Source: Candidatus Staskawiczbacteria bacterium (GTDB taxonomy: Bacteria > Patescibacteriota > Minisyncoccia > Minisyncoccales > Staskawiczbacteraceae). From it: DNA of 64,000 bases. A program made the position numbers and the translations under genes. Below, piece after piece: positions 6,322-62,901 of this stretch (the stretch's first letter is position 1; each line of letters begins with the position of its first letter). The stretch spans positions 16,532-80,531 of the forward strand of contig CAILLM010000004.1 of NCBI GenBank assembly GCA_903835075.1, given 5' to 3'. Under the pieces are notes generated by a model. The model saw only the letters and a program-made list of their open reading frames with translations, was not told the DNA's origin and ran no database searches.

Positions 6322-7236
6322 ATGCAATGGGAATACAATAAAGAAGATTTTGTTGTTGACGGTGATGCTCTTTTTGGTGAGGGGGCAAGAACTGAAGACA
6401 GTAAAATAACTAAGTCGGGGGATAATTATTATATGGCAGTTTCTAGCGGGATAGATGGAAATCATATGGATATCTATTTGCTAAAATCAAAATCTTTGCA
6501 TGGGCCATGGGAAAAGGTTCAAGATAAACCAATAATTTCGAGGGGTAATTTTTATGATTTTGATTTTAGGTATTTAAGGCTGGGAGGTATCAATTTCGAC
6601 AATGGAACTTGGTTTATATATTATTCTGGCCAGAATCTCCTTAGGCAAGATTCCGTAGGATTAGCTATTACATCAGCTAAAGATTTTCCATTTGGATGGA
6701 AGAAGTATAATAAAAATCCAATTTTAGAAAAGAATGGTGATAGCTGGGAATCGACATCAATATTGACCCTGTCTGTTAAAAAAATAGGGTCAGTTGGTAA
6801 GGAATGGTATGGCCACTATACTGGAAAGGGTAAAGATAAAAAATATCATTTAGGCGCTTGTTATAGCAACAGTCCCTATGGACCATTCTTTAGATGTGAA
6901 AATAATCCAATTTTAGGTCGTGGAGATTGGGATTTTAATGGACCTGCGCGGGCAGATATAATAAAATTTGAAGATAAAATATATGGAGCCTACGAGAGCG
7001 CTAAGTCTGGGCCAGTTTTTCAAATAGGCGGATACTCGGGGGATACTACAGGCGGCCCTTTTGAAAAAATATTTTCCGATTTACCATTTTTATCCGGCCT
7101 AGACAAGGGGTTGCAGTTTGCTAATCCTTGTTTTTGGCAAGAGGATGGGAAATTATATTTATTTGTGGGAAGAAAGATAACCTCTAATCAAACTCCTTGT
7201 TGGCGATATATTGATTTTTTAACTTTAAAATATTAA
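6322..7236 (+). CDS. Beta-propeller glycosidase/phosphorylase-like protein (GH43/GH130-like), uncertain
   Basis: 304 aa soluble protein with repeated W/G/Y-rich beta-strand blocks (WFIYYSG, WYGHYTG, LYLFVGR). No signal peptide. The assignment rests on general resemblance only. Confidence 0.3.
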   Translation: MQWEYNKEDFVVDGDALFGEGARTEDSKITKSGDNYYMAVSSGIDGNHMDIYLLKSKSLHGPWEKVQDKPIISRGNFYDFDFRYLRLGGINFDNGTWFIYYSGQNLLRQDSVGLAITSAKDFPFGWKKYNKNPILEKNGDSWESTSILTLSVKKIGSVGKEWYGHYTGKGKDKKYHLGACYSNSPYGPFFRCENNPILGRGDWDFNGPARADIIKFEDKIYGAYESAKSGPVFQIGGYSGDTTGGPFEKIFSDLPFLSGLDKGLQFANPCFWQEDGKLYLFVGRKITSNQTPCWRYIDFLTLKY

Positions 7237-31520: not shown

Positions 31521-31526
31521 ATATAT

Positions 31527-33191: not shown

Positions 33192-33198
33192 AAAATAT

Positions 33199-34884
33199 AT
33201 GAATAGTGAAACAAAACAATGTAAAAATTGTAAGCAAGACTTTGTTATAGAGTCCGAAGATTTTGATTTCTACGAAAAAATAAAAGTGCCAGCACCAACA
33301 TTTTGTCCAAATTGTAGGTACCAACGAAGGCTAACAAATCGCAACGAGTGGATTTTTTATGCTAGAGAATGTGACTTGTGCAAGACACAAATGGTTACAA
33401 TACATAATCCTGAATATGTGGGGAAAGTCTATTGTCAGCCATGTTTTTGGTCTGACAAGTGGGATGCATTTGATTGTGGTGCTGAGTTTGATTTTTCAAG
33501 GCCATTTTTTGAGCAGTTTAATGAATTGCGTTTACGGACTCCGCGAATTGCTATGGCAAATGCGCATAGCGTGAATTCTGAATATACCAATCAGTCAGAG
33601 AATAATAAAAATTGTTATTTATGTGTTTCATCAGGAAATTCTGAAAATTGTTTATATGGGTATTGGAATATATATAGTAGAGACTGCGTTGATTCATATT
33701 CAGTAGAAAAATGTGAAAGAGGTTATGAACTAATAAACTGTACAAAATGTAGTCGTGGTGCTTATTTAGAAAATTGTGCTGATTGTACAGACAGCTATTT
33801 TTTAAAAGATTGCCGAGGGTGTATAAATTGTTTTGGTTCATATGGACTTAGGAGCAAGTCATATTATTGGTTAAATGAACAATTAACTGTTGAAGAATAC
33901 AAAAAAAGGTTTAAGGAATTTATATTCAGTAACAGCAATATACAAAATTTTATTTTAAAACTTAAAGAAATTGAACTTACTAAACCACATAAGTACTATA
34001 ATGGACAAAAAGTTTTAATTTCAACTGGTGATTATTTGGAAGAAGCGAAATTTGCTAGAGACGCTTTTCATTGTCGTCATGTAGAAAACATTAAACATTG
34101 CCAAGACACTTGGTTTGCAAAAGATGTTTGTGACGCAACAGAAGCATACGGGGAGCTAAGCTTTGAAATTGAGGGGACAACTGCAGTCCGTTCTGCCTTT
34201 ATTGCAAAAATGTTGAATGTATCTGACTCTTATTATCTTGATTTGTGTGGCGAAGTGCATAATTTATTTGGTTGTGTGGGGTTGCAAAAGAAACAATATT
34301 GTATTTTAAATAAACAATATACAAAAGAAGAATATAATATATTAGTGCTAAAAATTACTGAACATATGAAAAAAAATGGGGAGTGGGGACAATTTTTTCC
34401 AGCTTCAATTTCTTCATTTGCTTATAATGAAACTGTTGCTCAAGATTATTTCCCATTGACCCGCGAGCAAGTGCTAGAGCAAGGTTATAAATGGTACACA
34501 CGTAAAGATAGGGAATATAAAATTGATTTAAAGCCCGATGAGTTGCCAAAAACAATTATAGAAGTGGGCGACTCAATTTTAGAAAAAACAATTTTATGTA
34601 AAACTCAGTTGTCAGAAAATGACAAGCAAAAATATTATAATTGCACAACTGCATTTAAAATTACAAAAGCGGAGCTAGATTTTTATAGAAGTATGGGATT
34701 GCCTCTGCCGGAAAGATGTTTTCATGACCGCCGCCAAGACCGCATGGCAAAACGTAATTCGCGAAAACTTTGGCACAGACATTGCATGAAAGAAGGCTGC
34801 ACTAATGAGTTTGAAACTTCTTACACACCCGACAGGCCAGAAATAGTTTATTGTGAACAATGTTATAACAACGAAGTTGCATAA
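33199..34884 (+). CDS. Cysteine-rich zinc-ribbon / solenoid-repeat protein, paralog 3 of 4
   Basis: Same architecture, including CDLC-x17-CQPC. I preferred ATG 33199 (MNSETKQCKNC) over the TTG at 33184, which overlaps paralog 2. Confidence 0.9.
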   Translation: MNSETKQCKNCKQDFVIESEDFDFYEKIKVPAPTFCPNCRYQRRLTNRNEWIFYARECDLCKTQMVTIHNPEYVGKVYCQPCFWSDKWDAFDCGAEFDFSRPFFEQFNELRLRTPRIAMANAHSVNSEYTNQSENNKNCYLCVSSGNSENCLYGYWNIYSRDCVDSYSVEKCERGYELINCTKCSRGAYLENCADCTDSYFLKDCRGCINCFGSYGLRSKSYYWLNEQLTVEEYKKRFKEFIFSNSNIQNFILKLKEIELTKPHKYYNGQKVLISTGDYLEEAKFARDAFHCRHVENIKHCQDTWFAKDVCDATEAYGELSFEIEGTTAVRSAFIAKMLNVSDSYYLDLCGEVHNLFGCVGLQKKQYCILNKQYTKEEYNILVLKITEHMKKNGEWGQFFPASISSFAYNETVAQDYFPLTREQVLEQGYKWYTRKDREYKIDLKPDELPKTIIEVGDSILEKTILCKTQLSENDKQKYYNCTTAFKITKAELDFYRSMGLPLPERCFHDRRQDRMAKRNSRKLWHRHCMKEGCTNEFETSYTPDRPEIVYCEQCYNNEVA

Positions 34885-34891
34885 AATAGTC

Positions 34892-34911
34892 AGGTTAACC
34901 ATGGTTAACCT
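34892..34911. repeat. Perfect 20-bp palindrome aggttaaccatggttaacct between paralogs 3 and 4
   Basis: The sequence equals its own reverse complement. It sits 7 nt after the paralog 3 stop and 12 nt before the paralog 4 ATG. Confidence 0.9.
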
Positions 34912-34923
34912 AAAAAATAAACC

Positions 34924-36633
34924 ATGCAGGATAAACGTGAAATAAAAAATTGTCAAAATTGCAAAAAGGATTTTATTGTAGAGCCTGAGGATTTTGATTT
35001 CTATGAAAAAATGAAAGTGCCAGCACCAACTTTTTGTTGGAAGTGTAGATTTCAAAGAAGGATGTCTTATAGAAATGAGCGCAAGGCATTTTTTAATACT
35101 AGCTTGAAAACAGAAAGTAAAGTTTTCTCTTTATATTCAAAGCAATCAAAAATTCCTATTTATAGTGATGTAGAATGGAATGAAGATGATTGGGATGCAA
35201 CGCAATATGGGGTTGATTATGATTTTTCGAAATCATTTTTTGAACAATTTCATGATCTAACTATGACCGTGCCTCACTGGGGAAGTTCTTGTGATGTTAG
35301 TAATTTAAGGTCAGATTTTGTGGCTAATTCTGATTACTCAAAAGATTCTTATCTTATTTTTAATACAAGCCACATGGAGTCTTGCGCTTATTGTAATTCT
35401 GCCACTCATTGTAGCGAATGTTTTGACTCTACTAGCATAGATTATTGTGAAAGAAGTTATGAGATATTTTGGTCTAACAAATGTTATCGTACTTATTTTT
35501 CATCTCAGTGTGATGATTGCACGAATGTTATATTTTCAAAAAATTGTAAGGGATGTATAGATTGTTTTGGGTGCGTGAATCTACGTAATAAGTCATATCA
35601 TATTTTTAATGTTGCCTATTCTAAAGAAGAGTATGAAAAGAAAATCAAATATTTTTTAATTAATACGTGGAACGGTTTCATAGATACAAAGAAAAAAGTA
35701 CAAGAATTTTGGTTAGAGTCTCCTGTAAAGTATATACAGGGAACAAACAATATGAATGTTGTTGGAGAGTATGTCTCACATTCACGCAATGTTTATATGG
35801 GTTATCTTATCCATGGAGGTGATAACCTTAAATATTGCCAGCACCATCCAGTCCCTGGAGTAAAAGACTCTATGGATGTGTCTGTCTGGGGAACCGTCAA
35901 TGAATTGTGTTATGAGAATTCAATTTGTGGGTATGGGTGCTTTAATTCTAAATTCTGCGTGGAATGCTGGCCACAAAATACAAATCTTGAGTACTGTATG
36001 TTTATGAAAAATTGTTCAGATTGTTTTGGCTGCATTGGTTTAAAAAACAAAAAATATTGTATATTTAATAAACAATATTCTGAAATAGAATATCGAGAGA
36101 TTATTGAAAAGATAAAAGAACAAATGGATAAAATGCCATATATTGATAAAAAGGGCAGGGTTTATAAATATGGAGAGTTTTTTCCAACAGAACTTTCTCC
36201 ATTTGAATATAACACCTCTGTGGTAAATGAATATTTTCCATTAACTCGTGAGCAGGCGTTTGAAGAGGGTTATGCTTGGGATGACACGGCAAAGACAGAA
36301 TATGAAGTAAATATAACTGCCAGCGAATTACCAGACTCTATAAAAGATGCCGAAGATAATATTGTTTCAAAATTAATTGCTTGTAATAAATGCAAAAAAG
36401 CATATCGCATTATAAAGTCAGAATTAGATTTTTTAAGAAAAGAAGAATTGCCCTTGCCTAGATTGTGTGTTGACTGCAGGTACGCTGAAAGAATATCGCA
36501 AAGGAATGAAGCCTTTCTATTTCATAGACACTGCATGAAAGAAGGTTGCACCAACGAATTTGAAACATCTTATGCACCCGATAGGCCAGAAATTGTTTAC
36601 TGTGAAAATTGCTACAGCAACGAGGTAGCCTAA
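34924..36633 (+). CDS. Cysteine-rich zinc-ribbon / solenoid-repeat protein, paralog 4 of 4
   Basis: 569 aa with the same architecture (CQNC...FYEKMKVPAPTFCWKCR; CKGCIDCFGCVNLRNK; CSDCFGCIGLKNKKYCIFNKQY; C-terminal CMKEGC-x17-CENC). Confidence 0.9.
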   Translation: MQDKREIKNCQNCKKDFIVEPEDFDFYEKMKVPAPTFCWKCRFQRRMSYRNERKAFFNTSLKTESKVFSLYSKQSKIPIYSDVEWNEDDWDATQYGVDYDFSKSFFEQFHDLTMTVPHWGSSCDVSNLRSDFVANSDYSKDSYLIFNTSHMESCAYCNSATHCSECFDSTSIDYCERSYEIFWSNKCYRTYFSSQCDDCTNVIFSKNCKGCIDCFGCVNLRNKSYHIFNVAYSKEEYEKKIKYFLINTWNGFIDTKKKVQEFWLESPVKYIQGTNNMNVVGEYVSHSRNVYMGYLIHGGDNLKYCQHHPVPGVKDSMDVSVWGTVNELCYENSICGYGCFNSKFCVECWPQNTNLEYCMFMKNCSDCFGCIGLKNKKYCIFNKQYSEIEYREIIEKIKEQMDKMPYIDKKGRVYKYGEFFPTELSPFEYNTSVVNEYFPLTREQAFEEGYAWDDTAKTEYEVNITASELPDSIKDAEDNIVSKLIACNKCKKAYRIIKSELDFLRKEELPLPRLCVDCRYAERISQRNEAFLFHRHCMKEGCTNEFETSYAPDRPEIVYCENCYSNEVA

Positions 36634-37071: not shown

Positions 37072-38538
37072 ATGGCAGAAAATAATAGAATTAGAAGGTT
37101 CAAATTGGCGCCTCCACCACCAGAGTTGCCTATTTATGGTACGGTAAATCCTGAAGATTGTTCTTTTATTGGCAAAACCAATTATGAAGCAGCACTTCAA
37201 GAGCAAAAATTTATTTTTGGCGTAAAACGCGTTGACAGACGAAGGCACTTATATATTGTAGGAAAGTCGGGCGTGGGAAAGTCAAAACTTTTGGAACTTT
37301 TTGTTAGGCAAGACATTGGGTACGGTCACGGACTTTGCTTTATAGATCCGCACGGAGATGTTATTGAAGATATTTTGCCGTTTATTCCAGAAGATAGAAT
37401 TGACGACGTTGTACTTATTGACCCTTCTGACGCTAAATTTCCAATTTCTTTTAATCCTTTAGCAAACATTGATGTTAATTTTAAGCACCAATTAACTCAA
37501 GGATTAATTGAGGTTTTGGAAAAGCAATTTGGAGCCAACTGGACGCCAAGGTTAGAGCACGTATTTAGGTTTACTTGTTTGGCGCTTTTGGATTATCCGC
37601 ACGGCACAATGCGTGGAATGATTTCCATGTTAACTGACAGAAATTATCGTCAGCTTGTTGTTGAATACATTCAAGATGACATGGTGAAAAGATTTTGGGC
37701 AATTGAATTTGCTGATTGGTCAGAAAAATATGACACAGAAGCTATTATTCCTTTGGTTAACAAACTTGCTCAATTTTTGTCTGATCCAATGTTGCGCGGA
37801 ATTTTTGGTCAAGAAGAAAACAAAATTGATTTAGAAAAAATGATGAATGAGGGAAAGATTATTTTGATAAATTTATCTAAGGGAAAATTGGGTGAAGAAA
37901 ATTCTAGCTTTTTTGGTTCAATGTTTATTACTAAATTAAAACAAGCTGGAATGGCACGTCAGTCTATACCAGAAAAAGATAGAGTTGATTTCTATTTGTA
38001 CGTTGACGAGTTCCACAACTTAATGACTGAAACTTTTGAAAATATATTATCTGAAGCTAGAAAATATGGCATGTGTCTTACAGTTGCTCATCAGTACATG
38101 GGTCAGCTTTTGCCGAAAGTCCAACAAGCAGTTTTGGGAAATACAGGAACAATTATTGTCTTTAGAGTTGGTGGAGAGGACGCTGTAAAATTGGAGCCCG
38201 AAATGGCACCAGTATTTGGAGCCAAAGATATGGTAAACTTGGGCGTGCAAAATTTTTACATAAAAGAAACAATTGATGGTGAAGCTTATGATCCTTTTTC
38301 TGCACAAACTCTTAAAGTTATGCCACCAACTCACAGATCTTTCAGAGAAGAAATTGTTGCAATGTCTCGCGAAAAATATGCTGTTTCAGCTGAAGCCGCG
38401 CAAAAACTTATGGCTTCTGAAGAGTCTAAAATTATGAGAAGTTCCCATGAAAAATCTATTATTCAGGGCAAAGGTAAGGGGCCAGAAGTACAAGAAGCTA
38501 AAAAAACCGAGGAAAAACCAGAGGAACCCCTTATTTAA
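37072..38538 (+). CDS. VirD4/TraD(TraG)-family coupling-protein-like P-loop ATPase, paralog of 27675..29678, with a short charged tail and no zinc ribbon
   Basis: Collinear with ATPase 1 throughout the core: KRVDRRRHLYIVGKSGVGKS vs KRKDRRQHMYVIGKTGAGKT; FYLYVDEFHNL; LTVAHQYMGQL; GNTGTIIVFRVG. Confidence 0.8.
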   Translation: MAENNRIRRFKLAPPPPELPIYGTVNPEDCSFIGKTNYEAALQEQKFIFGVKRVDRRRHLYIVGKSGVGKSKLLELFVRQDIGYGHGLCFIDPHGDVIEDILPFIPEDRIDDVVLIDPSDAKFPISFNPLANIDVNFKHQLTQGLIEVLEKQFGANWTPRLEHVFRFTCLALLDYPHGTMRGMISMLTDRNYRQLVVEYIQDDMVKRFWAIEFADWSEKYDTEAIIPLVNKLAQFLSDPMLRGIFGQEENKIDLEKMMNEGKIILINLSKGKLGEENSSFFGSMFITKLKQAGMARQSIPEKDRVDFYLYVDEFHNLMTETFENILSEARKYGMCLTVAHQYMGQLLPKVQQAVLGNTGTIIVFRVGGEDAVKLEPEMAPVFGAKDMVNLGVQNFYIKETIDGEAYDPFSAQTLKVMPPTHRSFREEIVAMSREKYAVSAEAAQKLMASEESKIMRSSHEKSIIQGKGKGPEVQEAKKTEEKPEEPLI

Positions 38539-41173: not shown

Positions 41174-41196
41174 ATTACCTGCCTGATGGCAGGCAG

Positions 41197-41597
41197 GTCT
41201 TAGTAAGACTATAAGCCGAATTCTGTATTACCCCGTAAAACGGGGGAACTGTGATTATCTGTCTGCCCATTCAATTACTCTCAGGGTCAAGCGAACTACT
41301 TTTCTCCGTCAACAAGTTTTAAAATCCATGAATGAATTTTTTAGGCTTTAAGCCCATGCTTGTCGAAGGGTTTGTTCTTGCGCCCAATAAGGATTTAGCC
41401 GTTTCAGCCCAACATTGCTGCTGAGATATACCCGTAGGGTATGCCAGGCGTTTCCACCTTTGCCGTTTCTGTTCGCACCTCGCACATTACTGTGGACGGC
41501 CGTTAGCCGCTATTATTTTAACTCCCGTTAGGGGCGTTGGTGTTCGGACTTTCCTCTCCAAACTTGCGTTTAGAGCAATCACTTATCTTGCTAAGAC
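41197..41597 (-). ncRNA. rnpB: RNase P RNA (bacterial)
   Basis: The - strand reads ...GGAGAGGAAAGUCCGAAC... (universal CR-I) and ...ACAGAAUUCGGCUUAU... (CR-V/P4 3' strand). The 5' GUCUUAG pairs with the 3' CUAAGAC as P1. It lies in an ORF-free, GC-richer stretch of about 400 nt. Confidence 0.9.
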
Positions 41598-47317: not shown

Positions 47318-48745
47318 TTATACTTCGAAAGATTGGCCCATTGTGGGAATTTCTATGGGCAAGCCTGGATGAGACTTTTCCATTAAATCTTTAAAAATTG
47401 TTGCTTGGGGAAGCTCTGTATGAACTAAAAATAGTTTTTGCAAATTTTTGACGTGAGAAATATATGAAGACAAATCATTTTGGTCAGCATGAGCTGAAAA
47501 TTCATGAAGAGTCTTTACTTGAGCTCTAATATTATATTCTTTGCCATAAATTTTTATTGGCGAAACATTTTCTTGAATTTTTCTACCTAAAGTATTTTCC
47601 GCCTGATAGCCTGTAATTAAGATTATATTCTGTGGATTCTCTATGTTATTTTTTAAGTGGTGCAAAACTCTTCCGCCTTCACACATCCCAGAAGCGGAAA
47701 TTATCATCATAGGGCCAGGCTTATTGTTTAAAGATTTTGATTCTTCTATTGTGCGTACATAGGTTATATTATTTAGCAAAAATGGGGAAGCTCCGCGGTA
47801 ACCAAAATCTTTTTGAAAATTACCATTAAAGTCTGTAACATATTTGGGGAAAATGTCTGTAATTTTTTCAGCTAGTGGGCTGTCTATATAAATTGGAATT
47901 GTGGGGATTGCTTTTTGGTTTATAAGTTTATGTAAAATATAAATAATATCTTGCGTTCTGCCCAATGAAAAAGCAGGAACAATAATTTTGCCTTTATTTT
48001 TTATCACTGTTGTAATTGCCCCTCTGAAGTTACCGGTTGCATCAGAAATTGGGTTGTGATTTTTATCACCATAGGTACATTCTGTAATAAGTGTATGGAC
48101 ATCTTCTTCAATATATTGTGGAGCTGGTAAAATGGGCGAGTTATCTCTACCTAAATCTCCAGTGAAAGCTAGGGTTTTTATTACTTGCCCTGAGCTTGCC
48201 GAAGGGTCGCCCTCTTTTATCTCTACATATATTATTGCAGACCCTAAAATATGACCTGCATCATAAAGTTTAAATCGTAAATTATCATTTAAAACAGTCC
48301 ACTGGTTGCTGTGTTTAAAATAATCAATTGTTTCAAAATGTTTTACTGCATTTAAAACATCTTGTTCACTATATATCGGATAAATTTGGTCAGCAGGATT
48401 TTCTACGTGCTTGTTAAAATATAGGGCATCTTGTTTTTGAATTTCAGCAGCGTCTAGCATAATATATTTTGCTATTTCAGCTGTAGCTGGTGTGCAATAA
48501 ATTTTTCCCTCAAAGCCATTTTTTACTAAAATGGGCAAGGTACCACAGTGGTCTAAGTGCGCATGGGAAAGTATAACAGCGTTTATGTCTTTAGCTTCAA
48601 AAGGGAGGGTGCTATTAAGCTTGTTTGAATCAGCTCTTTTCCCCTGATAGAACCCACAATCTAAGAGTAAATTATAGCCATTAGTTTGTATTAAGTGTTT
48701 AGAGCCTGTTACATTCTGGTCTGCTCCCAAAAAATTTATTTTCAT
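47318..48745 (-). CDS. MBL-fold beta-CASP family hydrolase (RNase J / CPSF-like ribonuclease)
   Basis: HAHLDHCG metallo-beta-lactamase motif, beta-CASP region, and a C-terminal H (FSAHAD). It contains a GC-rich in-frame insert encoding GDPSASSGQV. Confidence 0.8.
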   Translation of the reverse strand: MKINFLGADQNVTGSKHLIQTNGYNLLLDCGFYQGKRADSNKLNSTLPFEAKDINAVILSHAHLDHCGTLPILVKNGFEGKIYCTPATAEIAKYIMLDAAEIQKQDALYFNKHVENPADQIYPIYSEQDVLNAVKHFETIDYFKHSNQWTVLNDNLRFKLYDAGHILGSAIIYVEIKEGDPSASSGQVIKTLAFTGDLGRDNSPILPAPQYIEEDVHTLITECTYGDKNHNPISDATGNFRGAITTVIKNKGKIIVPAFSLGRTQDIIYILHKLINQKAIPTIPIYIDSPLAEKITDIFPKYVTDFNGNFQKDFGYRGASPFLLNNITYVRTIEESKSLNNKPGPMMIISASGMCEGGRVLHHLKNNIENPQNIILITGYQAENTLGRKIQENVSPIKIYGKEYNIRAQVKTLHEFSAHADQNDLSSYISHVKNLQKLFLVHTELPQATIFKDLMEKSHPGLPIEIPTMGQSFEV

Positions 48746-49469: not shown

Positions 49470-49548
49470 GCGGGCATAGTCCAGCCTGGTTTAAGACGCC
49501 TCCCTGTCACGGAGGAGATCGGGGGTTCAAATCCCCCTGCCCGCGCCA
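49470..49548 (+). tRNA. tRNA-Asp (GUC) with encoded CCA
   Basis: Acceptor gcgggca/tgcccgc, anticodon stem cctcc/ggagg with loop cuGUCac, T arm ggggg-ttcaaat-ccccc, 3' gCCA. The D-loop is long (11 nt). Confidence 0.85.
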
Positions 49549-49583
49549 TCAGTTTTAGTATCTAGTGATGCTGAGACCGTAGA

Positions 49584-49611
49584 AAAACCACCTTTTAATA
49601 GAGGTGGTTTT
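49584..49611 (+). terminator. Rho-independent terminator after the tRNA cluster
   Basis: aaaaccacc / ggtggtttt stem with a 10-nt loop and trailing Ts. Confidence 0.6.
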
Positions 49612-49699
49612 AGTTTGACTTTTATTTAATTTCGTTGTAATCTCTACATACCCACAACGTGGTGTTTTGGGCGAACTTTGAAAGAACAATAACGATGAA

Positions 49700-50000
49700 A
49701 AAGAATATTGTAATTTTTTCAATAACGGTATTAACGTATATAGCTAATGTAGGAGCAACTTCGACCATTTTTGATAGAGGCAAGCAACGCGGCGGTGTTC
49801 TTCGTAGAGCCCTTCTTGGACTCACCTTCGATGGCGGCGGATGTGGTGGCGATGGGCGCGATCAGCGCCCATGACTGGTATTTTCTCATGGCCGTTGTAT
49901 TTTATTGTTTGGCGCTGGTCCACCTGGACTTCCTACGAGGAATCAGTGGTCGCAACCATAAAGTCCTAAAATACTTAGAACCTTGTGGTTGCGACCAGTA
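49700..50000. other. GC-richer unassigned segment with mutually overlapping short ORFs; possible gene remnant
   Basis: Three track ORFs in different frames and strands overlap here, and none is recognisable. An unlisted 56-codon - strand ORF (start 49889) begins MRKYQSWALIAPIATTSAA (signal-peptide-like). The segment contains a 12-bp inverted repeat. Confidence 0.3.
49947..49997. repeat. 12-bp perfect inverted repeat tggtcgcaacca / tggttgcgacca
   Basis: Arms at 49947-49958 and 49986-49997, with a 27-nt loop. Confidence 0.8.
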
Positions 50001-50106
50001 AGAGATTGTTGTTAATGAACTATGCTAAACATTATATTAAGTCTATAAAAAACAAAATAACATGTCAAGAGTTGTCGGCCCAAAAATTATTTGGTAGAAT
50101 AAAAAT

Positions 50107-50745
50107 ATGAAAAAAGAAACTTTAATAACAATTGTTGCAATAATTATAATTATTGCATGCATAATTGTTGGAGTAGTATATGTGGTAAAGCCCAACCAGC
50201 AACCTACAAATACTGCCACGCCAACAACAAATAATCAGCCAGCAAATAATTCAACAACAAAAAATATGCAACACACAATAACAATAAAAACAAATATGGG
50301 TGACATAAGTTTTGTAACTTACGACGGTGACGCCCCAAACACAGTTAAAAATTTTATAACTTTAGCAGAAAAAGGTTTTTATAATGGCTTAACATTCCAC
50401 AGGGTTATTCCAGGTTTTATGATTCAGGGCGGTGACCCCGTAGGCAATGGTACTGGCGGTCCAGGGTATAAATTTGATGATGAATTAAATCCACAAACAG
50501 ATTCTTATAAAGCAGGGTATAAAAAAGGAGTTGTGGCAATGGCTAACGCCGGACCAAACACCAACGGTAGTCAGTTTTTCATAATGGTGTCTGATTATCC
50601 TTTACCAAATAATTATACAATTTTTGGTAAAGTAGTTTTGGGGCAAGATGTGGCAGACGCAATTTCAAAAGTGCAGACTGGGTCAAATGATATGCCAGCT
50701 TCAAAAGTCACAATGGAAAAAGTCACAGTAACCGAAAATAAATAA
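50107..50745 (+). CDS. ppiB: Membrane-anchored cyclophilin-type peptidyl-prolyl cis-trans isomerase
   Basis: N-terminal TM helix, a T/N/P-rich linker, then FHRVIPGFMIQGGDP, GGPGYKFDDE, MANAGPNTNGSQFFI. Confidence 0.9.
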   Translation: MKKETLITIVAIIIIIACIIVGVVYVVKPNQQPTNTATPTTNNQPANNSTTKNMQHTITIKTNMGDISFVTYDGDAPNTVKNFITLAEKGFYNGLTFHRVIPGFMIQGGDPVGNGTGGPGYKFDDELNPQTDSYKAGYKKGVVAMANAGPNTNGSQFFIMVSDYPLPNNYTIFGKVVLGQDVADAISKVQTGSNDMPASKVTMEKVTVTENK

Positions 50746-50776
50746 AAAAATGTCCGGCGATTTGCGGTCGCCGGAC
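50744..50776 (-). terminator. Rho-independent terminator of the GH16 gene (- strand)
   Basis: gtccggcga / tcgccggac 9-bp GC stem. On the - strand it is followed by a T-run (the complement of the aaaaaaa at 50744-50750). Confidence 0.7.
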
Positions 50777-50797
50777 CTGTTAGGAGTTTGAAGTACG

Positions 50798-52471
50798 TTA
50801 TCGTACCACAGCCGTTGCTTTTGCCACGGCTTTTGGATTGGTGGTAGCAGTAGCGGTAATTGTTGCTTTGCCAACAGATTTTGGCCAAACTCGGCCATCT
50901 GAATCAACATAGGCAATTGCCGGATTGCTAGACGCCCAAATGACGCCCGCAGTGATTGGATATCTTTCCATATCAACTGCGCTGGGGACTAATTGTTGGG
51001 GCGTGCCTGATGTCAATGACAAGTAGAATTTGGTTGGCGACAGTGTGATTGTTTTCAACACGGGCGATGTTCCCGAACCTGTCCTGAAGACATCATCAAA
51101 CAAATAGCCGTTGAGTGATGCTGGTAATCCGCCACCAGAACTCAGTGGAATGTTTATGCTGGCTGGTACCAAATAAGCACGAACTTCTTCTGCATCCACA
51201 TCCGAACCCCCGGTGGTCATGTAGGCGGTCCATGTGCCGCCTTTTTTGATGTCTGTTAACGGAGCAGCAAAGGTGGGTTTTGTCCACCAACCGCCGAAGA
51301 CATTGATGTAAACAGCAATTTTCCAGTTTTTGTAATCAGCACCAATTCCATTAACGATGCCCGAGGCATAGCCCTGGGTACCAAGAGCTGGCGTTTTTTG
51401 GATAACAACATTGATTGGTGATTTCACTGTAAGCGCGGCTGGATCACTTGTTATGCCGTTGGCCGACGCAGTTATATTTGTGGTACCCGGGCTTATGGTT
51501 GTTATTAAACCGGTTGAACTAATTTTCGCAACCGCCGGATTACTGGAAGTCCACGTTAATTTAATGGGTGTAACAATGGTGTTTTGGTTTTGGTCAATTG
51601 CCGACGCAAGGAACTGTTGCTGTTTGTTTGCGCCATAAGATAGCGGTCCAGCAGGGTCGATTTCTATGGTTGTTAAAACCTGGGGACTTACTTGTGAGAC
51701 ACTAACAGAATCAACGCTCATAGACCAAACTTGATATTTTCCGAAGACGAAGCTGGAGTCATATGCATCGGTCCACGAAGAATCGGGAACCCATCCATTG
51801 AAATGGATGTACATAGGGCCCTTTGGTATGGGTGATTGGTTTGTGACTGTTCGCGCCAATATGCCATCAACATACCATGATACTTGGTTGGGTAACCAGA
51901 CAATTTGATATGTATGATATCCTGAAGTGTTGCCACCTGCAGAATATTTAACAAATTGTGGGTTTCCAACTCCGAGCACTTCGTTGCCGTAGGTGTTGGT
52001 GTAGAAGCCTTCCGGGTGGTTTCCCATAAATTCAAAGTCAATTTCATCATGGCGTGTGTCGCTATACGAAACCGGCGGACTGTACAAAAAGAATGCAAAA
52101 ACAGTTCCGCGACGGATAGTGTCCACTTTGAGTCGGGCTGTGATTGTAAGTCCGTTGCCCACAAAGAGCGGGCCGTTGCTGATGAGGTCGGTTCCGTCAA
52201 ACCATGAACCTTCGCTATAACTATAGGAATCGATGGTGATATTTACGGTGCTGTTCCCAACAATTGGTAGATCTCCTGGGGCGGTGTTGAGAAAGGTGCG
52301 TCCAATATAGAAACCCTCATTCAAGCTTGGGATGTGCCAAAAGTTTGTATTGACTACCGGGTATTTTGCCCCGGGAGCGGCTGTGAAGTGGTCGGAGAAA
52401 ATGGTGGTATCCCCGAATACAGTGGTTGTAAGAATTAATGCAATGGCGGTGGCGAAGGCGGTGGTTTTCAT
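50798..52471 (-). CDS. Secreted family 16 glycoside hydrolase (laminarinase/licheninase-like) with two Big_2 Ig-like domains
   Basis: GH16 catalytic motif HDEIDFEFMG. Big_2 patterns LTWTSSNPAVAKISSTGLITTISPGTTNITA and VIWASSNPAIAYVDSDGRVWPKSVGKATITATA. I placed the start at the MKTTAFATAIALILTTTVFG signal peptide (ATG 52471) rather than 52510. Confidence 0.85.
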   Translation of the reverse strand: MKTTAFATAIALILTTTVFGDTTIFSDHFTAAPGAKYPVVNTNFWHIPSLNEGFYIGRTFLNTAPGDLPIVGNSTVNITIDSYSYSEGSWFDGTDLISNGPLFVGNGLTITARLKVDTIRRGTVFAFFLYSPPVSYSDTRHDEIDFEFMGNHPEGFYTNTYGNEVLGVGNPQFVKYSAGGNTSGYHTYQIVWLPNQVSWYVDGILARTVTNQSPIPKGPMYIHFNGWVPDSSWTDAYDSSFVFGKYQVWSMSVDSVSVSQVSPQVLTTIEIDPAGPLSYGANKQQQFLASAIDQNQNTIVTPIKLTWTSSNPAVAKISSTGLITTISPGTTNITASANGITSDPAALTVKSPINVVIQKTPALGTQGYASGIVNGIGADYKNWKIAVYINVFGGWWTKPTFAAPLTDIKKGGTWTAYMTTGGSDVDAEEVRAYLVPASINIPLSSGGGLPASLNGYLFDDVFRTGSGTSPVLKTITLSPTKFYLSLTSGTPQQLVPSAVDMERYPITAGVIWASSNPAIAYVDSDGRVWPKSVGKATITATATTNPKAVAKATAVVR

Positions 52472-52624
52472 AACTGATTTGTGGTGATTTGAGAAAGCCC
52501 TTAGAAGCAAAAACCCTGTACACTCGTGCAGAGAATAATATTATTTCAAGGAGCCTTTTCGTAATTTAACCATATGAGATATTAGCCTTTTTGTCAACAG
52601 GGTATTTTTTAACTATTCTCGGTG

Positions 52625-52633
52625 TGATATAAT
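52625..52633 (+). promoter_or_regulatory. Perfect extended -10 element TGATATAAT, 9 nt before the ATG (leaderless-type arrangement)
   Basis: tgatataat is at 52625-52633 and the ATG at 52643. A possible -35, ttgtca, lies further upstream. Confidence 0.5.
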
Positions 52634-52642
52634 TTATTCATT

Positions 52643-53551
52643 ATGCAAATAAAAAAAATACCAATAGGTTCAATTCTAATAATAACAGCAGCTTTGTTGT
52701 GGGCAGTTGATGGGGTAATTCGCAGGAATTTATATTCATTACCGCCAATTACAATAATTTTCTTTGAGCATTTAATAGGATTAATTATTTTAACGCCTTT
52801 TGTTTTAAAATATGTTTTGAAAGCCAAGCTAACTGCTCGTGAATGGTGGCTGATAATTTTAATTGCAGTTTTGAGTGGGTTGTTAGGCACGCTGTGGTTT
52901 ACAACAGCGCTTTTGAAAGTTTCATTTATTTCTTTCTCAGTTGTATTTTTATTGCAGAAACTTCAGCCAATTTTTGCTGTAAGTACAGCGTCAGTTTTTT
53001 TAAAAGAAAAACTTGATAAAAGATATATGGTTTGGGCAATCTTAGCTATAGTTTCTGCATATTTTGTTACTTTTCCAAATGGCTATATAAATCTTGCAAC
53101 AGGTAGCGGCACAATAATAGCAGCACTTTATGCCTTAGGGGCAGCTTTTGCCTGGGGGACTTCAACAACATTTTCAAAAATGCTTTTAGGAAAAGTGCGT
53201 GCGGAAGTAAGTACTTTTTATAGGTTTTTATTTACAGCTATTATTGCTTTGCCAATTGTAATATTTTTTGGATACCGTGCTAGTTTGTTTGCTGTCACGC
53301 CACTCCAGTTTGGGTTATTTGTTTTGATAGCTGTTTCAACTGGAATGGTGGCATTGGTTATTTATTACAAGGGGCTAGCTAAGACCCCAGTTCATGTTTC
53401 AACAATTTTGGAACTTACTTTTCCATTTGTGGCAATTTTAATAGATATGACGCTGTATCATAATTTTTTAACTGTTTCGCAATGGGTGGCTGCTTGTTTG
53501 CTTATTTTTAGTATTTATAAAATTGCAAAATTAAGAGAAGTACAAATTTAA
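52643..53551 (+). CDS. EamA/DMT-superfamily transporter
   Basis: 10-TM protein made of two duplicated EamA halves (LLWAVDGV..., AFAWGTSTTFSK...). Confidence 0.8.
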   Translation: MQIKKIPIGSILIITAALLWAVDGVIRRNLYSLPPITIIFFEHLIGLIILTPFVLKYVLKAKLTAREWWLIILIAVLSGLLGTLWFTTALLKVSFISFSVVFLLQKLQPIFAVSTASVFLKEKLDKRYMVWAILAIVSAYFVTFPNGYINLATGSGTIIAALYALGAAFAWGTSTTFSKMLLGKVRAEVSTFYRFLFTAIIALPIVIFFGYRASLFAVTPLQFGLFVLIAVSTGMVALVIYYKGLAKTPVHVSTILELTFPFVAILIDMTLYHNFLTVSQWVAACLLIFSIYKIAKLREVQI

Positions 53552-53552
53552 A

Positions 53553-53900
53553 ATGATAAAAATTATTGGCACAGTAGTACGGGGTAAGCAAAAGGGCCGA
53601 CAGCTTGGGTTTCCTACGGCTAATGTTGAAATAAAAAATATAGATTTGGAGCAAGGAATTTATGCGGGCACAATAATTGTTGGCGGGAAAAAACATGGCT
53701 GCGCAGTTTATTATTCGGGAGAAAAATTTATAGAAGCTTTTATTTTTGATTTTTCTGAAGATCTATATGGTAAAGAAGTAATTGTGGAAGTTTTGGAAAA
53801 AATTAGAGATAAGCAAATTTTTGAAACTAAAGCAGAGGCCATAGAACAAATCACAAAAGACACTACGGCGATTAAAGAGCTGTTACGAAAGTTGGGGTAG
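53553..53900 (+). CDS. Monofunctional riboflavin kinase domain protein
   Basis: GTVVRGKQKGRQLGFPTANV and EAFIFDFSEDLYGKEV match the RibF C-terminal kinase domain. No FAD synthetase domain is present. Confidence 0.8.
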   Translation: MIKIIGTVVRGKQKGRQLGFPTANVEIKNIDLEQGIYAGTIIVGGKKHGCAVYYSGEKFIEAFIFDFSEDLYGKEVIVEVLEKIRDKQIFETKAEAIEQITKDTTAIKELLRKLG

Positions 53901-59791: not shown

Positions 59792-61117
59792 ATGAAAAAT
59801 AAAATATCTATAGCATCTTTTTTGGTGGCATATTGTTTAACGATAATATCCCCTTCTACATTAGCTGTCTCACTTAAGCCGGGTATTATGCCCACCATTC
59901 CGGCTATAATCCCTCAAGTAGTCGATATTTCTAAGGCGAATTTTTTAGCGCCTAATTTTCATGTTAGTAATTTAAATATTAATGAAATATCGGGAAGCGA
60001 AATAAAGGGTAATTTTACGACGACTAATCAAGAAAATTATTATACGGCAGACTTAAATTACGAAATGAAATTGTTTAAAGGCACAGATTTCCAAAGTTTA
60101 AAATTAATTGATCTCGTAGCTATAAGTGATCCATTTTTTATACAACCAAATGGAGAAGTCGCCAAATCTTTTGTATACAATTATCCACAAAATATTGTTA
60201 GCGGAGATTACACCTTAAGAATACAAATAATCACAGGTAGGGGTATGGAGCTCGGTTGGCAAGATAAAGTTATTTTGCTAAAAGGAAATAATAAATTTTT
60301 AGATATAGATTTTTTAACTGCTAAAGTTTTATCTGGAACAATTTCGGGAACTCCTTTAGAGGGCATAAACGTGGCCTCAACAGATGATGTTTCTGGCAGT
60401 TTAAAAGTCCAAAATACAGGTAAGGCAATTACTGTTGTTCCACAAATAAAAATTTACAAAAGGCAAATTAACATGCCCGTAGTAAAAGAATATAATGATT
60501 CGGCAATAACTTTTGCCAAAGGTGAAACAAAAACAGTAACTTTAAAAATGCCAAAATTAGATATACCAGAATCATATTTGGCTGAAGTTAAATTTTTTGA
60601 AAACAATCAGCAAGTTTCTGGTTTACAATATTTTAGATGGGTAGTGGAAGGTGACAGCGGGAAAATAATTTACATAAAAGCAGATAAAGATTTTTATAAA
60701 GCAGGAGACGCAATTAATTTAACAATTCAAACAGTTGGTCCTGCCGATGGCAGCAACGCAGGGACAGGCCAATTGCAAGTAATTGTTTCTGATAAAAACA
60801 AAAAACAAATTGCTAAAATTTTAAAAGATGTGTCGCTAACCGGCGGATTGCTTCCATCAATAATTTCAATTCCTGTTAAATATGATTTAGTTTCTCCAAT
60901 AATTGACGTTAAACTAACTAAAGCAGGAAAAATATTAGATGAGCAGAATATTAATTTACCCGTATTTTCTTCAACAGCTATCCAATTAGAAAAACAGATA
61001 TTGCAAAAAAAATCATCAAACATAAATTATTTAATATATGTGTTTGCGATCTTAGTTATCGTGGCTATTATTTTGATTTTCATATTTTATAAATTGAAAT
61101 TTAGAAAAATTAAATGA
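59792..61117 (+). CDS. Secreted protein with a C-terminal TM anchor (surface protein, function unknown)
   Basis: Signal peptide (ASFLVAYCLTIISPSTLA), a beta-rich body, and a C-terminal hydrophobic helix plus basic tail (YLIYVFAILVIVAIILIFIFYKLKFRK). Confidence 0.75.
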   Translation: MKNKISIASFLVAYCLTIISPSTLAVSLKPGIMPTIPAIIPQVVDISKANFLAPNFHVSNLNINEISGSEIKGNFTTTNQENYYTADLNYEMKLFKGTDFQSLKLIDLVAISDPFFIQPNGEVAKSFVYNYPQNIVSGDYTLRIQIITGRGMELGWQDKVILLKGNNKFLDIDFLTAKVLSGTISGTPLEGINVASTDDVSGSLKVQNTGKAITVVPQIKIYKRQINMPVVKEYNDSAITFAKGETKTVTLKMPKLDIPESYLAEVKFFENNQQVSGLQYFRWVVEGDSGKIIYIKADKDFYKAGDAINLTIQTVGPADGSNAGTGQLQVIVSDKNKKQIAKILKDVSLTGGLLPSIISIPVKYDLVSPIIDVKLTKAGKILDEQNINLPVFSSTAIQLEKQILQKKSSNINYLIYVFAILVIVAIILIFIFYKLKFRKIK

Positions 61118-62901
61118 AAATATCTCGCGCATTATTTTTTGCTATAATCACCTTCGCCTTAGGTTTTGCTGGCGTTGTTTCTGCTGCTCCTCCCGCTCCT
61201 GGGAAGCCTATTTTACAAAATACCAATAATCCAAATGTCACAAGTCTTACAAATCCAACATTTACAGTTTCCTGTGAAACTGGTGATGATGTTTATTTAA
61301 TGTCAGACGGAAATGGTATAGGAGTATCACCAGACTATGTTTTTGGTAGATGTGCAAGCGGGTTGGTAGCCCTTACAGTGCCCAGTGGTAAATTGAGTAC
61401 AGGGGTAGTACACAATATAACTGCCATTCAATACAGGTTGCCATACGATTTTTATGGTTCATATCCTAACAATTTATCTCCAAGTTCGCCAGCTCTTTCA
61501 TTGACTATAAATATAAGCACGGGTACGAGCGGAGGCACATTCCCTGTCAATCCTACTAGTTTTCCTGATATTTGCAGTCTCAAGTCTCTTTATAGCTTAC
61601 CTAATCTATCTGGAGCTTGTAATTCCAGCTGTCCTTACGGGAGTCAGAAATGCACCATGACAGACGCGTATGGTGATTGTACGCTATCTACGCCATGCTG
61701 TACGCCAAATAGATATTGTCCCAATAAAGGTACTATCAACTCTACAAATTGTGGTGGCGTAGAATATACAAACGTGCCACTTTATTATAATGGTTCTTTT
61801 GCTTACTCATATGATTCCTGTGGCGCATATAATAGTGGCACATGGAGTCCCGATAGTACTTATAGTAGTCGCCTTTCACTAGTTATAAACCAAGGGCCAA
61901 CAGCAAATGCTGAATATTGCCCAGGTGATCATATACCTACTAGTGGATCAGCAACAATAACCGCATGTAGCAATTCCGTAGCCCCACTTGTGGAGGTTTG
62001 TTTCGACACCAGTAGTTGCGTTGCTATTACAGGTATCTCTAATAACTTTAATGGAGGGATCACTTGGGATTCATATTGGGCTGTTGGTGGGGGAAGTGGT
62101 GAAGCAGCCTTTGCAGGTTTAAGATATATTGAACCTTTTCAATATAAAACTTCTGGACTCCCGGTAGAAACTGATTTAGGAGATGTCGAGACGCCTATTT
62201 ATATAGGGCACGCTGGTCATTGTGGTACAGCCACAACGGGCGGGGGCACATATTCTTCGGCGCCACCCACTAATACTCTTTGTGACCAAAGCAGAAATTA
62301 TGGAAATACAACTCCTACACACAGTGGTAGTCTATGGAGTTGGACATGTAAGGGAGCTACTGGAAGTTGTGCAGGGCAAGACCAAGCTTGCACAGCACTA
62401 TATCAGTATCAGGCGCCCCTTGTTGCGACCTGTTCGGTTTCTCCAGATTCTGCATGTGCAGGAACCTCGGTAACTTGGACAGCATCTGCTAGCGGAGGCA
62501 CAGGTTCTTATTCTAGCTATTATTGGAGTGGAACGGAGAGTTTTTATGGGCAGAGTGTTAACAAAACTTATTCAATATCTAATGGATTGTCATCAACCAA
62601 AACAGAACATGTCACAGTGACCGACTCTTCGGGTAACTCTGCAACTAGCGCCTCTTGTGTTGCTACAATAAACCCAGCTGTTGTAATTTGTGGAAATGCA
62701 GAGGGTGGTTATTTGGCTGGAGAAGATTTTCCACGAGAACCATGGGATTACCCTTACAACTATTGTGCGATAGGAACTTTCACGCCCTCAGCCTCAACCT
62801 ACACTTATAGAGTGCGTGCAATAAATAAAAATACTCAAACAGGCGCTGATCAAATTGGGAATTGGTCAAATGTTGTTAATGCTACACCGCCTTCACAATA
62901 A
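61114..62901 (+). CDS. Secreted Cys/Gly/Ser/Thr-rich protein (surface/adhesin-like, function unknown) with an FN3-like C-terminal end
   Basis: Signal peptide MKISRALFFAIITFALGFAGVVSA and many Cys. The C-terminus, YTYRVRAINKNTQTGADQIGNWSNVVNATP, resembles the last strands of a fibronectin type III domain. It has an ATGA overlap with the upstream gene. Confidence 0.75.
   Translation: MKISRALFFAIITFALGFAGVVSAAPPAPGKPILQNTNNPNVTSLTNPTFTVSCETGDDVYLMSDGNGIGVSPDYVFGRCASGLVALTVPSGKLSTGVVHNITAIQYRLPYDFYGSYPNNLSPSSPALSLTINISTGTSGGTFPVNPTSFPDICSLKSLYSLPNLSGACNSSCPYGSQKCTMTDAYGDCTLSTPCCTPNRYCPNKGTINSTNCGGVEYTNVPLYYNGSFAYSYDSCGAYNSGTWSPDSTYSSRLSLVINQGPTANAEYCPGDHIPTSGSATITACSNSVAPLVEVCFDTSSCVAITGISNNFNGGITWDSYWAVGGGSGEAAFAGLRYIEPFQYKTSGLPVETDLGDVETPIYIGHAGHCGTATTGGGTYSSAPPTNTLCDQSRNYGNTTPTHSGSLWSWTCKGATGSCAGQDQACTALYQYQAPLVATCSVSPDSACAGTSVTWTASASGGTGSYSSYYWSGTESFYGQSVNKTYSISNGLSSTKTEHVTVTDSSGNSATSASCVATINPAVVICGNAEGGYLAGEDFPREPWDYPYNYCAIGTFTPSASTYTYRVRAINKNTQTGADQIGNWSNVVNATPPSQ

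Follow-up and report, generated by a model that had tools for sequence, protein, structure and literature searches.

The question raised by this locus is how a gene for a secreted glycoside hydrolase of family 16 (GH16), of foreign composition and on the opposite strand to its neighbours, came to reside in its present host. Judged from LepA, which is 90% identical to that of named Candidatus Staskawiczbacteria genomes, the host is Candidatus Staskawiczbacteria (Parcubacteria/Paceibacteria), a bacterium of the candidate phyla radiation (CPR), as the initial annotation had supposed. Taken as a whole, the observations are best explained by a horizontally acquired cassette encoding a secreted endo-beta-glucanase of the ExDxE clade, a reading to which we assign a probability of roughly three in four. 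The window, by which we mean the whole 64-kb stretch of DNA analysed, carries exactly three minus-strand features, the number first reported: the GH16 gene, the RNase P RNA (41196-41594) and a beta-CASP gene (47318-48745). The gene and its immediate surroundings are organized as follows:

50107-50745, plus strand: native flank, membrane-anchored cyclophilin, GC3 0.258 (Pfam and composition; 81% identical to the orthologue in the related locus L019)
50748-52624, no strand: lineage-specific inserted segment of 1877 bp, cyclophilin to EamA (blastn against L019)
50752-50776, minus strand: intrinsic terminator, GTCCGGCGA-CCGCAAA-TCGCCGGAC then ATTTTTTTAT (9-bp stem, 7 G-C pairs)
50798-52471, minus strand: CDS, 557 aa and stop codon, for a secreted protein with the order GH16 - Big_2 - Ig-like domain - Big_2 (ORF, Pfam, public gene calls and composition)
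52569-52597, minus strand: putative sigma-70-like promoter, TTGACA-17-TATGGT (about 100 nt upstream of the ATG; consensus match only)
52643-53551, plus strand: native flank, EamA transporter, GC3 0.238 (Pfam and composition; 80 orthologous loci recovered)

Counted from a TTG start, the open reading frame spans 50798-52510 on the minus strand; the ATG at 52471 is the likely start and yields a 557-aa product beginning MKTTAFATAIALILTTTVFG, the same product that appears in public gene calls. The interval first assigned to the gene, 50777-52560, encloses the CDS and narrowly excludes the terminator and the promoter, while the gene does have a G+C-rich terminator of its own, as had been claimed. 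The putative promoter matches the consensus at 10 of 12 positions, the best match in the region. When the window was compared with L019 by blastn, positions 50098-50747 and 52625-53860 aligned and nothing between them did, so that the putative promoter and the terminator both fall inside the segment without an L019 counterpart. We suggest that 50748-52624 is a self-contained single-gene expression cassette of promoter, CDS and terminator, and that it was probably acquired horizontally by the lineage of this Candidatus Staskawiczbacteria genome, landing in a plastic region that is bounded by beta-CASP, GIY-YIG and tRNA genes on one side and by EamA and ABC-F genes on the other. The insert shows neither an integrase or transposase gene nor direct repeats at its flanks or inverted repeats at its ends, the repeat matches there being short and at chance level only; the tRNA genes are 1.2 kb away, with the native cyclophilin gene between. 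Scanning the whole window with Rfam returned the RNase P RNA and tRNAs only, and a permissive scan of the G+C-rich intergenic stretch 49500-50150 gave nothing credible.

The protein encoded by the cassette can be divided into a signal peptide and four domains:

52412-52471, minus strand: Sec-type signal peptide, residues 1-20 (MKTTAFATAIALILTTTVFG; read from the sequence, cleavage site putative)
51686-52411, minus strand: GH16 beta-jelly-roll catalytic module, residues ~21-262 (Pfam PF00722, Foldseek and phmmer)
52031-52045, minus strand: catalytic motif E143-I-D145-F-E147, with His141-Asp142 just before (sequence; aligns with DEIDIE of Bacillus licheninases)
51443-51685, minus strand: first Big_2 domain, residues ~263-343 (Pfam PF02368, best stretch 267-339)
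51068-51442, minus strand: unannotated Ig-like beta-sandwich, residues ~344-468 (AlphaFold2 model; conserved GGWWTKP...TTGG.D..A.E.RAYLVP)
50801-51067, minus strand: second Big_2 domain, residues ~469-557 (second PF02368 stretch; all-beta in the model)

The description of a secreted GH16 enzyme with an EIDFE motif and two Big_2 domains thus held up. PF00722 matched residues 75-235 (E = 1.7e-26; 93.2 bits, where the curated cutoff is 22), PF02368 scored 61 bits over its two stretches, and EIDFE at residues 143-147 supplies the catalytic E-x-D-x(x)-E motif of the family on one strand. The AlphaFold2 model of the protein had a pLDDT of 86.6, with values below 50 for residues 1-15, and its top Foldseek matches were all GH16 proteins with the beta-jelly-roll fold (E down to 1.6e-13, target-normalised TM-score up to 0.82). 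Read from the sequence, the protein contains no lipobox and no Cys at all. Residues ~344-468, correctly described at the outset as uncharacterised, had no Pfam match, and a Protein Data Bank search with this domain returned nothing significant (best E = 8e-3); it was nevertheless modelled with a pLDDT of 91 and occurs in 1,263 cluster representatives, in up to six copies per protein. It is thus a widespread domain without a Pfam model, and this domain, together with the branch of GH16 to which it is joined here, may be modestly useful for biochemistry.

Foreign composition was the starting point of the initial annotation, and it was borne out. The gene has a G+C content of 0.469 and a GC3 of 0.455, against a mean GC3 of 0.248 for the remaining 51 open reading frames (sd 0.030, maximum 0.370), which places it at z = +6.9. 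The GC3 expected from the amino acids of the GH16 protein and the synonymous codon usage of the host is 0.249, and the per-codon log-likelihood of the gene under host usage lies at z = -5.8. The excess is uniform over all domains of the gene (GC3 0.42-0.55).

Orthologous intervals in relatives do not contain the gene. A GH16 gene was found within 6 kb of the EamA orthologue at none of 80 loci. In L019, three other genes lie between cyclophilin and EamA (GC3 0.28, 0.43 and 0.33), and in the relative P0126 (LepA 91% identical), the gene list from which the interval was read gives cyclophilin, a 163-aa ORF and EamA in that order. Absence from the cyclophilin-EamA interval of relatives, the codon-usage anomaly and the exclusion of a mis-join (see below) together argue for horizontal acquisition, as originally proposed. 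Another Staskawiczbacteria-like genome carries a second, different GH16 gene in this plastic region. Between GIY-YIG/tRNA and ABC-F, two lineages of Staskawiczbacteria have each taken in a GH16 gene, not the same one, an indication of recurrent selection for secreted beta-glucanases. The present locus would be a clean, well-bounded case of streamlined, ultra-small Patescibacteria gaining extracellular carbohydrate degradation by one promoter-to-terminator cassette; as horizontal transfer it is ordinary in kind and does not overturn current understanding.

For an indication of the donor we turned to relatives of the protein. The nearest, at 46-62% identity, are encoded at different loci of other Patescibacteria; among non-conspecific proteins, the closest shares 52-54% identity overall and 59-62% within the GH16 module. 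In a midpoint-rooted neighbour-joining tree without support values, the window protein grouped with that of a Saccharibacteria genome (L008) and with P0002-P0004, the last of which is encoded on a contig (L011) assigned to Paceibacteria by RpoD; on this tree, Paceibacteria and Saccharibacteria occur together in the nearest clade. These relatives, with the second GH16 gene in a Staskawiczbacteria-like genome, weaken the implication that such a gene is alien to the CPR. It had been anticipated that best hits in other Patescibacteria, sharing synteny and composition, would speak against acquisition. The best hits are indeed in Patescibacteria, yet they share neither the synteny nor a host-like composition: GC3 is 0.37 and 0.35 in L008 and L011, against 0.21-0.27 in their neighbouring genes. 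Neighbour genes of L008 and L011-L014 showed no useful similarity to Staskawiczbacteria loci by tblastn.

Since other Patescibacteria supply the nearest relatives sampled, the gene may plausibly have moved within this group, and the donor may itself have been a patescibacterium. We envisage an unsampled, G+C-richer donor (about 47% G+C, with C-rich third positions). A scan of species-representative genomes recovered three loci only (Saccharibacteria, Phycisphaerales and Syntrophobacteraceae), none close enough to be the donor. It is also possible, though we hold this only tentatively, that the donor was from outside the radiation (e.g. Bacteroidota, Planctomycetota or Chloroflexota) and that the other patescibacterial copies are parallel acquisitions from the same reservoir. 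The gene is G+C-richer than its host in all three Patescibacteria contexts, so that in none of them does it look like a long-term resident. Modules of GH16 at 49-52% identity to that of the window protein occur in Phycisphaerales (L009) and in proteins with domains typical of bacteria outside the radiation (dockerin, Por-secretion-tail or DUF4214), and more distant family members lie on contigs that do not look like CPR (P0005, with PurD, IMPDH and an rve integrase; L012, with 43-46% G+C). On the other hand, the patescibacterial clade is at least as close as any protein from outside the radiation, only in that clade have all four domains been seen together, in proteins of 550-565 aa, and most transfers detected into Patescibacteria came from other Patescibacteria (PMC12455944). 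The cassette resembles the horizontally transferred genes and small genomic islands surveyed there in being a single atypical accessory gene in a variable region with its nearest relatives in Patescibacteria, and differs from them in having no mobility gene, no identifiable donor-recipient pair and a closest relative that is only 54% identical.

Whichever donor supplied the cassette, the class of its enzyme can be approached from sequence and model. The beta-bulge-free clade of GH16 is defined by ExDxE, while laminarinases carry an ExDxxE beta-bulge (PMC6827312); EIDFE in the window protein has the former spacing, that of subfamilies 18-21 and related proteins. Among solved structures, phmmer ranked licheninases best (8e-14 to 3e-12; 3o5s at 8e-14), followed by EG16/XTH (5sv8, 8.7e-11; 5dze, 8e-10), with the best laminarinase at only 3e-5 (2vy0). 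Foldseek likewise placed the licheninases 1mac and 1gbg nearest, at a target-normalised TM-score of 0.82; GH16_3 laminarinases share the family and fold but gave weaker structural matches (0.64-0.71). The best fit is therefore to a licheninase/ExoK/XTH-like rather than a laminarinase-like enzyme. Of the earlier proposal of a beta-glucan- or laminarin-type hydrolase, the beta-glucanase part is retained and the laminarin part is not.

The resemblance to GH16_21 licheninases of Bacillus and Paenibacillus (3o5s, 1gbg, 1mac) extends beyond the beta-jelly-roll fold and the bulge-free motif to secretion, to the DEIDxEFxG context and to the preceding FFxY aromatic stretch, in which FFLY of the query aligns with FFTY of 3o5s and 1gbg, the -1 subsite Phe platform (Phe-92, Tyr-94). 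In contrast, identity is only 23-30%; the best phmmer value of 8e-14 does not reach the GH16_21 network threshold of E <= 1e-55, a comparison that is indicative only given the other program and database size. Moreover, the module is ~240 aa long (residues ~21-262), against ~210 with short loops in licheninases (PMC6827312); His141 directly precedes D-E-I-D where licheninases have Trp-103 (1GBG numbering); and the module is fused to three Ig-like domains. A His at this position is the ExoK/XTH state and widens the cleft (PMC8711696). The window protein shares this diagnostic His, within an H-D-E-I-D-F-E-F motif, with ExoK, the alphaproteobacterial succinoglycan depolymerase that loosens biofilm, and with plant EG16/XTH (GH16_20), and differs from both in taxon and domain context. 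It belongs to an uncharacterised branch on the ExDxE (licheninase/ExoK/XTH) side of GH16.

The predicted enzyme would be exported via the Sec pathway and act as a retaining endo-beta-glucanase of the GH16 clade without a beta-bulge, in which E143 is predicted to serve as nucleophile and E147 as acid/base. Its three Ig-like domains may display it at, or extend it from, the cell surface. The substrate, cleaved outside the cell, is most likely mixed-linkage beta-1,3-1,4-glucan or an exopolysaccharide with a beta-glucan backbone, as far as can be judged from relatives that are only 23-30% identical. Glucan cleavage would provide sugars for a cell that lives by fermentation and has few biosynthetic pathways, or would loosen the matrix around it or that of its host. 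A different role is conceivable, although we regard it as unlikely: the four-domain protein (GH16 - Big_2 - 'GGWWTKP' Ig-like - Big_2) might be passed around horizontally among Patescibacteria as a surface glycanase and act, like ExoK, on exopolysaccharide or capsule of the host bacterium or biofilm, serving attachment or matrix loosening for episymbiosis and not simple scavenging. Such circulation would explain why the gene is G+C-rich relative to every host examined.

Acquisition by horizontal transfer must also be weighed against vertical inheritance of a native gene whose codon usage was shaped by selection (e.g. high expression favouring C-ending codons) and lagging-strand mutational bias. 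The shift to C-ending codons and the preference for AAA and GAA do in part look like the product of translational selection and of a lagging-strand bias, more than like the mark of a donor that was simply G+C-richer. Most of the GC3 excess is C3 (0.312, against 0.09-0.16 in native genes), while G3 is host-like (0.143), and the preference for AAA and GAA is even stronger than in the host. The only other minus-strand CDS also has more C3 than G3 (0.162 versus 0.095), and the relatives in two other Patescibacteria genomes are elevated in GC3 too. However, GC3 is normal (0.256) in that native minus-strand gene, so that a strand effect adds only about 0.06 to C3, and a family member in L014 has a GC3 of 0.176, exactly that of its host; the family is therefore not intrinsically C3-rich. 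The GH16 gene is likewise enriched in NCG codons and in the CGN arginine family, an enrichment unlike that of translational selection, and none of the relatives examined has the gene in the orthologous interval. High-expression codon bias was rejected on these grounds, and native inheritance is, in our judgement, very improbable.

An assembly or binning chimera, in which a fragment of another, G+C-richer organism was mis-joined into the contig, might be suggested by the abrupt switch in composition and the flip of strand at the GH16 gene, but a mis-join, named at the outset as grounds for abandoning transfer, is ruled out with near certainty by seven independently assembled contigs (L001-L007) from different samples and pipelines (MEGAHIT k141, BUCK21 scaffolds and Logan) that span both junctions and are 99.85-100% identical to the window. 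The exact protein was found on 19 contigs in total.

The GH16 gene stands out from the rest of the window in both base composition and codon usage. Its G+C content is 0.469 and its GC3 (G+C at third codon positions) is 0.455, while the remaining 51 ORFs have a mean GC3 of 0.248 (sd 0.030, maximum 0.370; z = +6.9 for the GH16 gene). Host synonymous codon usage applied to the amino acids of the GH16 protein predicts a GC3 of 0.249, and the anomaly is therefore synonymous. The excess is even across all five gene segments (0.42-0.55 each), and the per-codon log-likelihood of the gene under host usage is low (z = -5.8). Two native secreted proteins combine a high second-position G+C with a normal GC3. 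A 595-aa secreted protein (61114-62901), rich in Ser, Thr, Gly and Cys and with no Pfam match, has a second-codon-position G+C of 0.574 and a native GC3 of 0.275; as an internal control, it indicates that the amino acid composition of secreted proteins does not raise GC3. These data confirm the initial annotation of a compositionally foreign gene on the opposite strand. Only three features of the window lie on the minus strand:

50798-52471, minus strand, GH16 gene
41196-41594, minus strand, RNase P RNA
47318-48745, minus strand, beta-CASP nuclease gene

The excess lies mainly in C at third positions (0.312, compared with 0.092 for native genes on the plus strand and 0.162 for the native minus-strand gene), with G at third positions host-like. 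The codon signal is partly a lagging-strand effect, and another part could imitate translational selection. The preference for AAA and GAA is even stronger than that of the host. Distant members of the family are found at host composition (GC3 0.176 vs 0.16-0.19 in locus L014; 0.375 vs ~0.38 in L013), so the family is not intrinsically G+C-rich. We attribute the anomaly mainly to transfer, because NCG and CGN codons are enriched in the gene, orthologues are missing at the locus in relatives, and the copy in L014 looks native.

Proteins assigned by name to Candidatus Staskawiczbacteria share 90% identity with the window LepA, which places the host in the Parcubacteria/Paceibacteria, within the candidate phyla radiation (CPR). 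The nearest relative with available data, whose LepA is 91% identical, has cyclophilin, a 163-aa ORF and EamA in that order and on the same strand. In the related locus L019, whose EamA, ABC-F and cyclophilin are 81%, 93% and 81% identical to those of the window, the cyclophilin-EamA interval (L019 3534-5982) is occupied by three unrelated genes, with GC3 above the ~0.20-0.26 of the host:

86 aa, GC3 0.28
222 aa, P-loop kinase-like, GC3 0.43
384 aa, no family, GC3 0.33

Foreign DNA thus seems to have landed in this interval repeatedly. At the nucleotide level, the window and L019 are homologous over 50098-50747 and 52625-53860 but not in between, which delimits a lineage-specific segment of 1877 bp. 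No GH16 gene was found within 6 kb of the EamA orthologue (66-84% identity) in any of 80 metagenomic loci. Horizontal acquisition, as first proposed, is supported by the synonymous codon anomaly and the orthologues missing at this locus. A search around the gene for an integrase, a transposase or a convincing flanking repeat found none. Two putative expression signals fall within the segment that relatives lack:

50776-50752, minus strand, strong intrinsic terminator (9-bp stem with 7 G-C pairs, then ATTTTTTTAT)
52597-52569, minus strand, sigma-70-like site TTGACA-17-TATGGT, the best such match in the region

The wider zone, from beta-CASP/GIY-YIG/tRNAs to ABC-F, is plastic. It holds ~15 different genes in another contig (90.7 kb), which we infer to be Staskawiczbacteria-like from a LepA homologue 85% identical. 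Among them is a second, differently built GH16 protein of 566 aa (P0029; L097 3187-4887), with a C-terminal catalytic module 43% identical to that of the window protein and an N-terminal half without assignment. Its gene is the sole opposite-strand gene there and has a GC3 of 0.37 vs 0.22-0.30.

An assembly mis-join was excluded. The exact GH16 protein is present on 19 contigs, and the seven that were retrieved, which differ in sample and assembly pipeline (MEGAHIT 'k141', 'BUCK21' scaffolds and one Logan assembly), run straight across both junctions with 99.85-100% identity to the window.

The donor search returned no nameable donor. The closest non-conspecific proteins (P0002-P0004) share the four-domain architecture; their identity to the window protein is 52-54% over the full length and 59-62% within the GH16 module. 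Next, at 46% identity, is a homologue from genome L008 of Candidatus Saccharibacteria. Exactly these proteins group with the window protein in a neighbour-joining tree built on the GH16 module, calculated without support values. L011, which carries P0004, belongs to Paceibacteria/Parcubacteria by RpoD. Window synteny is not shared: in L011 the homologue is flanked by RpoD and a UvrD-like gene, and in L008 its neighbours are unrelated genes. The homologues have GC3 of 0.35 (L011) and 0.37 (L008) vs 0.21-0.27 in their neighbours. The suggestion that the gene is foreign to the CPR is thereby weakened; it is G+C-richer than its host, but its nearest relatives lie in Paceibacteria and Saccharibacteria. 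The data fit exchange among Patescibacteria from a G+C-richer member, the commonest route in a published survey (PMC12455944). Independent uptake by each lineage from a non-CPR reservoir that has not been sampled would also fit.

The GH16 ORF, counted from a TTG, spans 50798-52510 on the minus strand; the likelier start is an ATG at 52471, giving a 557-aa product on which public gene calls agree and whose N terminus is a typical Sec signal peptide, MKTTAFATAIALILTTTVFG. Pfam recognises two stretches of Big_2 and a GH16 domain at residues 75-235 (1.7e-26), with no matching model for residues ~344-468. The AlphaFold2 model (43 homologues) is all-beta with a mean pLDDT of 86.6. The catalytic residues form the motif E143-I-D145-F-E147 within the stretch R-H-D-E-I-D-F-E-F-M-G-N. 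GH16 enzymes divide primarily into ExDxxE (beta-bulge; laminarinases, agarases and others) and ExDxE types (licheninases, XTH and CRH; Viborg et al., PMC6827312), and the window protein has ExDxE. The best solved relatives by sequence are Bacillus/Paenibacillus 1,3-1,4-beta-glucanases (3o5s at 8e-14, 1gbg and 1mac), followed by plant EG16 and XTH enzymes (1e-10 to 1e-9); the highest-ranking laminarinase reaches only 3e-5. Licheninases also rank first by fold (target-normalised TM-score 0.82). 'Laminarin-type', the original description, is therefore not the best one. The residue before DEID is His in ExoK/XTH, where it widens the cleft, and Trp in Firmicutes licheninases (Shinohara and Nishitani, PMC8711696); the window protein and its family consensus have His, unlike Firmicutes licheninases. 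We place the enzyme with the licheninases, ExoK and XTH within GH16 but do not assign it to GH16_21, because its module is ~240 aa and only 23-30% identical to members.

The middle domain (residues 344-468; window 51068-51442, minus strand), modelled alone, is an Ig-like beta-sandwich (pLDDT 91). Foldseek found no significant counterpart among solved structures (best E 8e-3, antibody V domains). An exhaustive HMMER search detected it in 1,263 cluster representatives (476 at E <= 1e-10), in up to six tandem copies, within diverse surface proteins alongside GH16, Big_2, Bact_surface_Ig-like domains or nothing annotated. Its conserved motif, GGWWTKP...TTGG.D..A.E.RAYLVP, suggests a carbohydrate-contact or spacer role. 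The domain is a candidate new family or carbohydrate-binding module.

In the proposed scheme, of which the fold, the catalytic motif and the export signal are shown, the cassette would be transcribed from its own promoter and the product exported by Sec, with the signal peptide cut after residue ~20. The enzyme would act extracellularly as a retaining endo-beta-glucanase in which E143 would be the nucleophile, D145 the helper and E147 the acid/base, and the Big_2/Ig-like/Big_2 stalk would hold it at, or project it from, the cell surface. It would probably cleave mixed-linkage beta-glucans or exopolysaccharides built on a beta-glucan backbone. Released oligosaccharides would feed a fermentative cell; matrix loosening is a possible second role.

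Elsewhere in the window, a 304-aa ORF (6322-7236) of native composition, inside a glycosyltransferase/sugar-transferase gene cluster, has a weak partial GH43 match (residues 22-74, 1.1e-9). A 547-bp intergenic stretch (49560-50106) from tRNA-Asp to cyclophilin matched no Rfam family and has no called gene. Its core (49790-49950) is 57-72% G+C vs ~33% for the genome, it holds a GGGCGCGATCAGCGCCC hairpin and a near-perfect ~15-bp hairpin (49947-49997), and its RNA folding gives z of about -3 on both strands. The stretch is 99.8-100% identical in conspecific contigs and absent from related loci; it may be a small RNA or a remnant of foreign DNA that has since been lost. Four tandem paralogues (29745-36633; 554-591 aa, 30-42% mutual identity) have a treble-clef zinc-finger-like N terminus, CxxC...CPxCR, and otherwise no annotated domain; relatives carry similar genes of 550-590 aa at this position. 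The array is flanked by two proteins resembling VirD4/TrwB coupling ATPases of type IV secretion systems (27675-29678 and 37072-38538), one with a treble-clef zinc finger.
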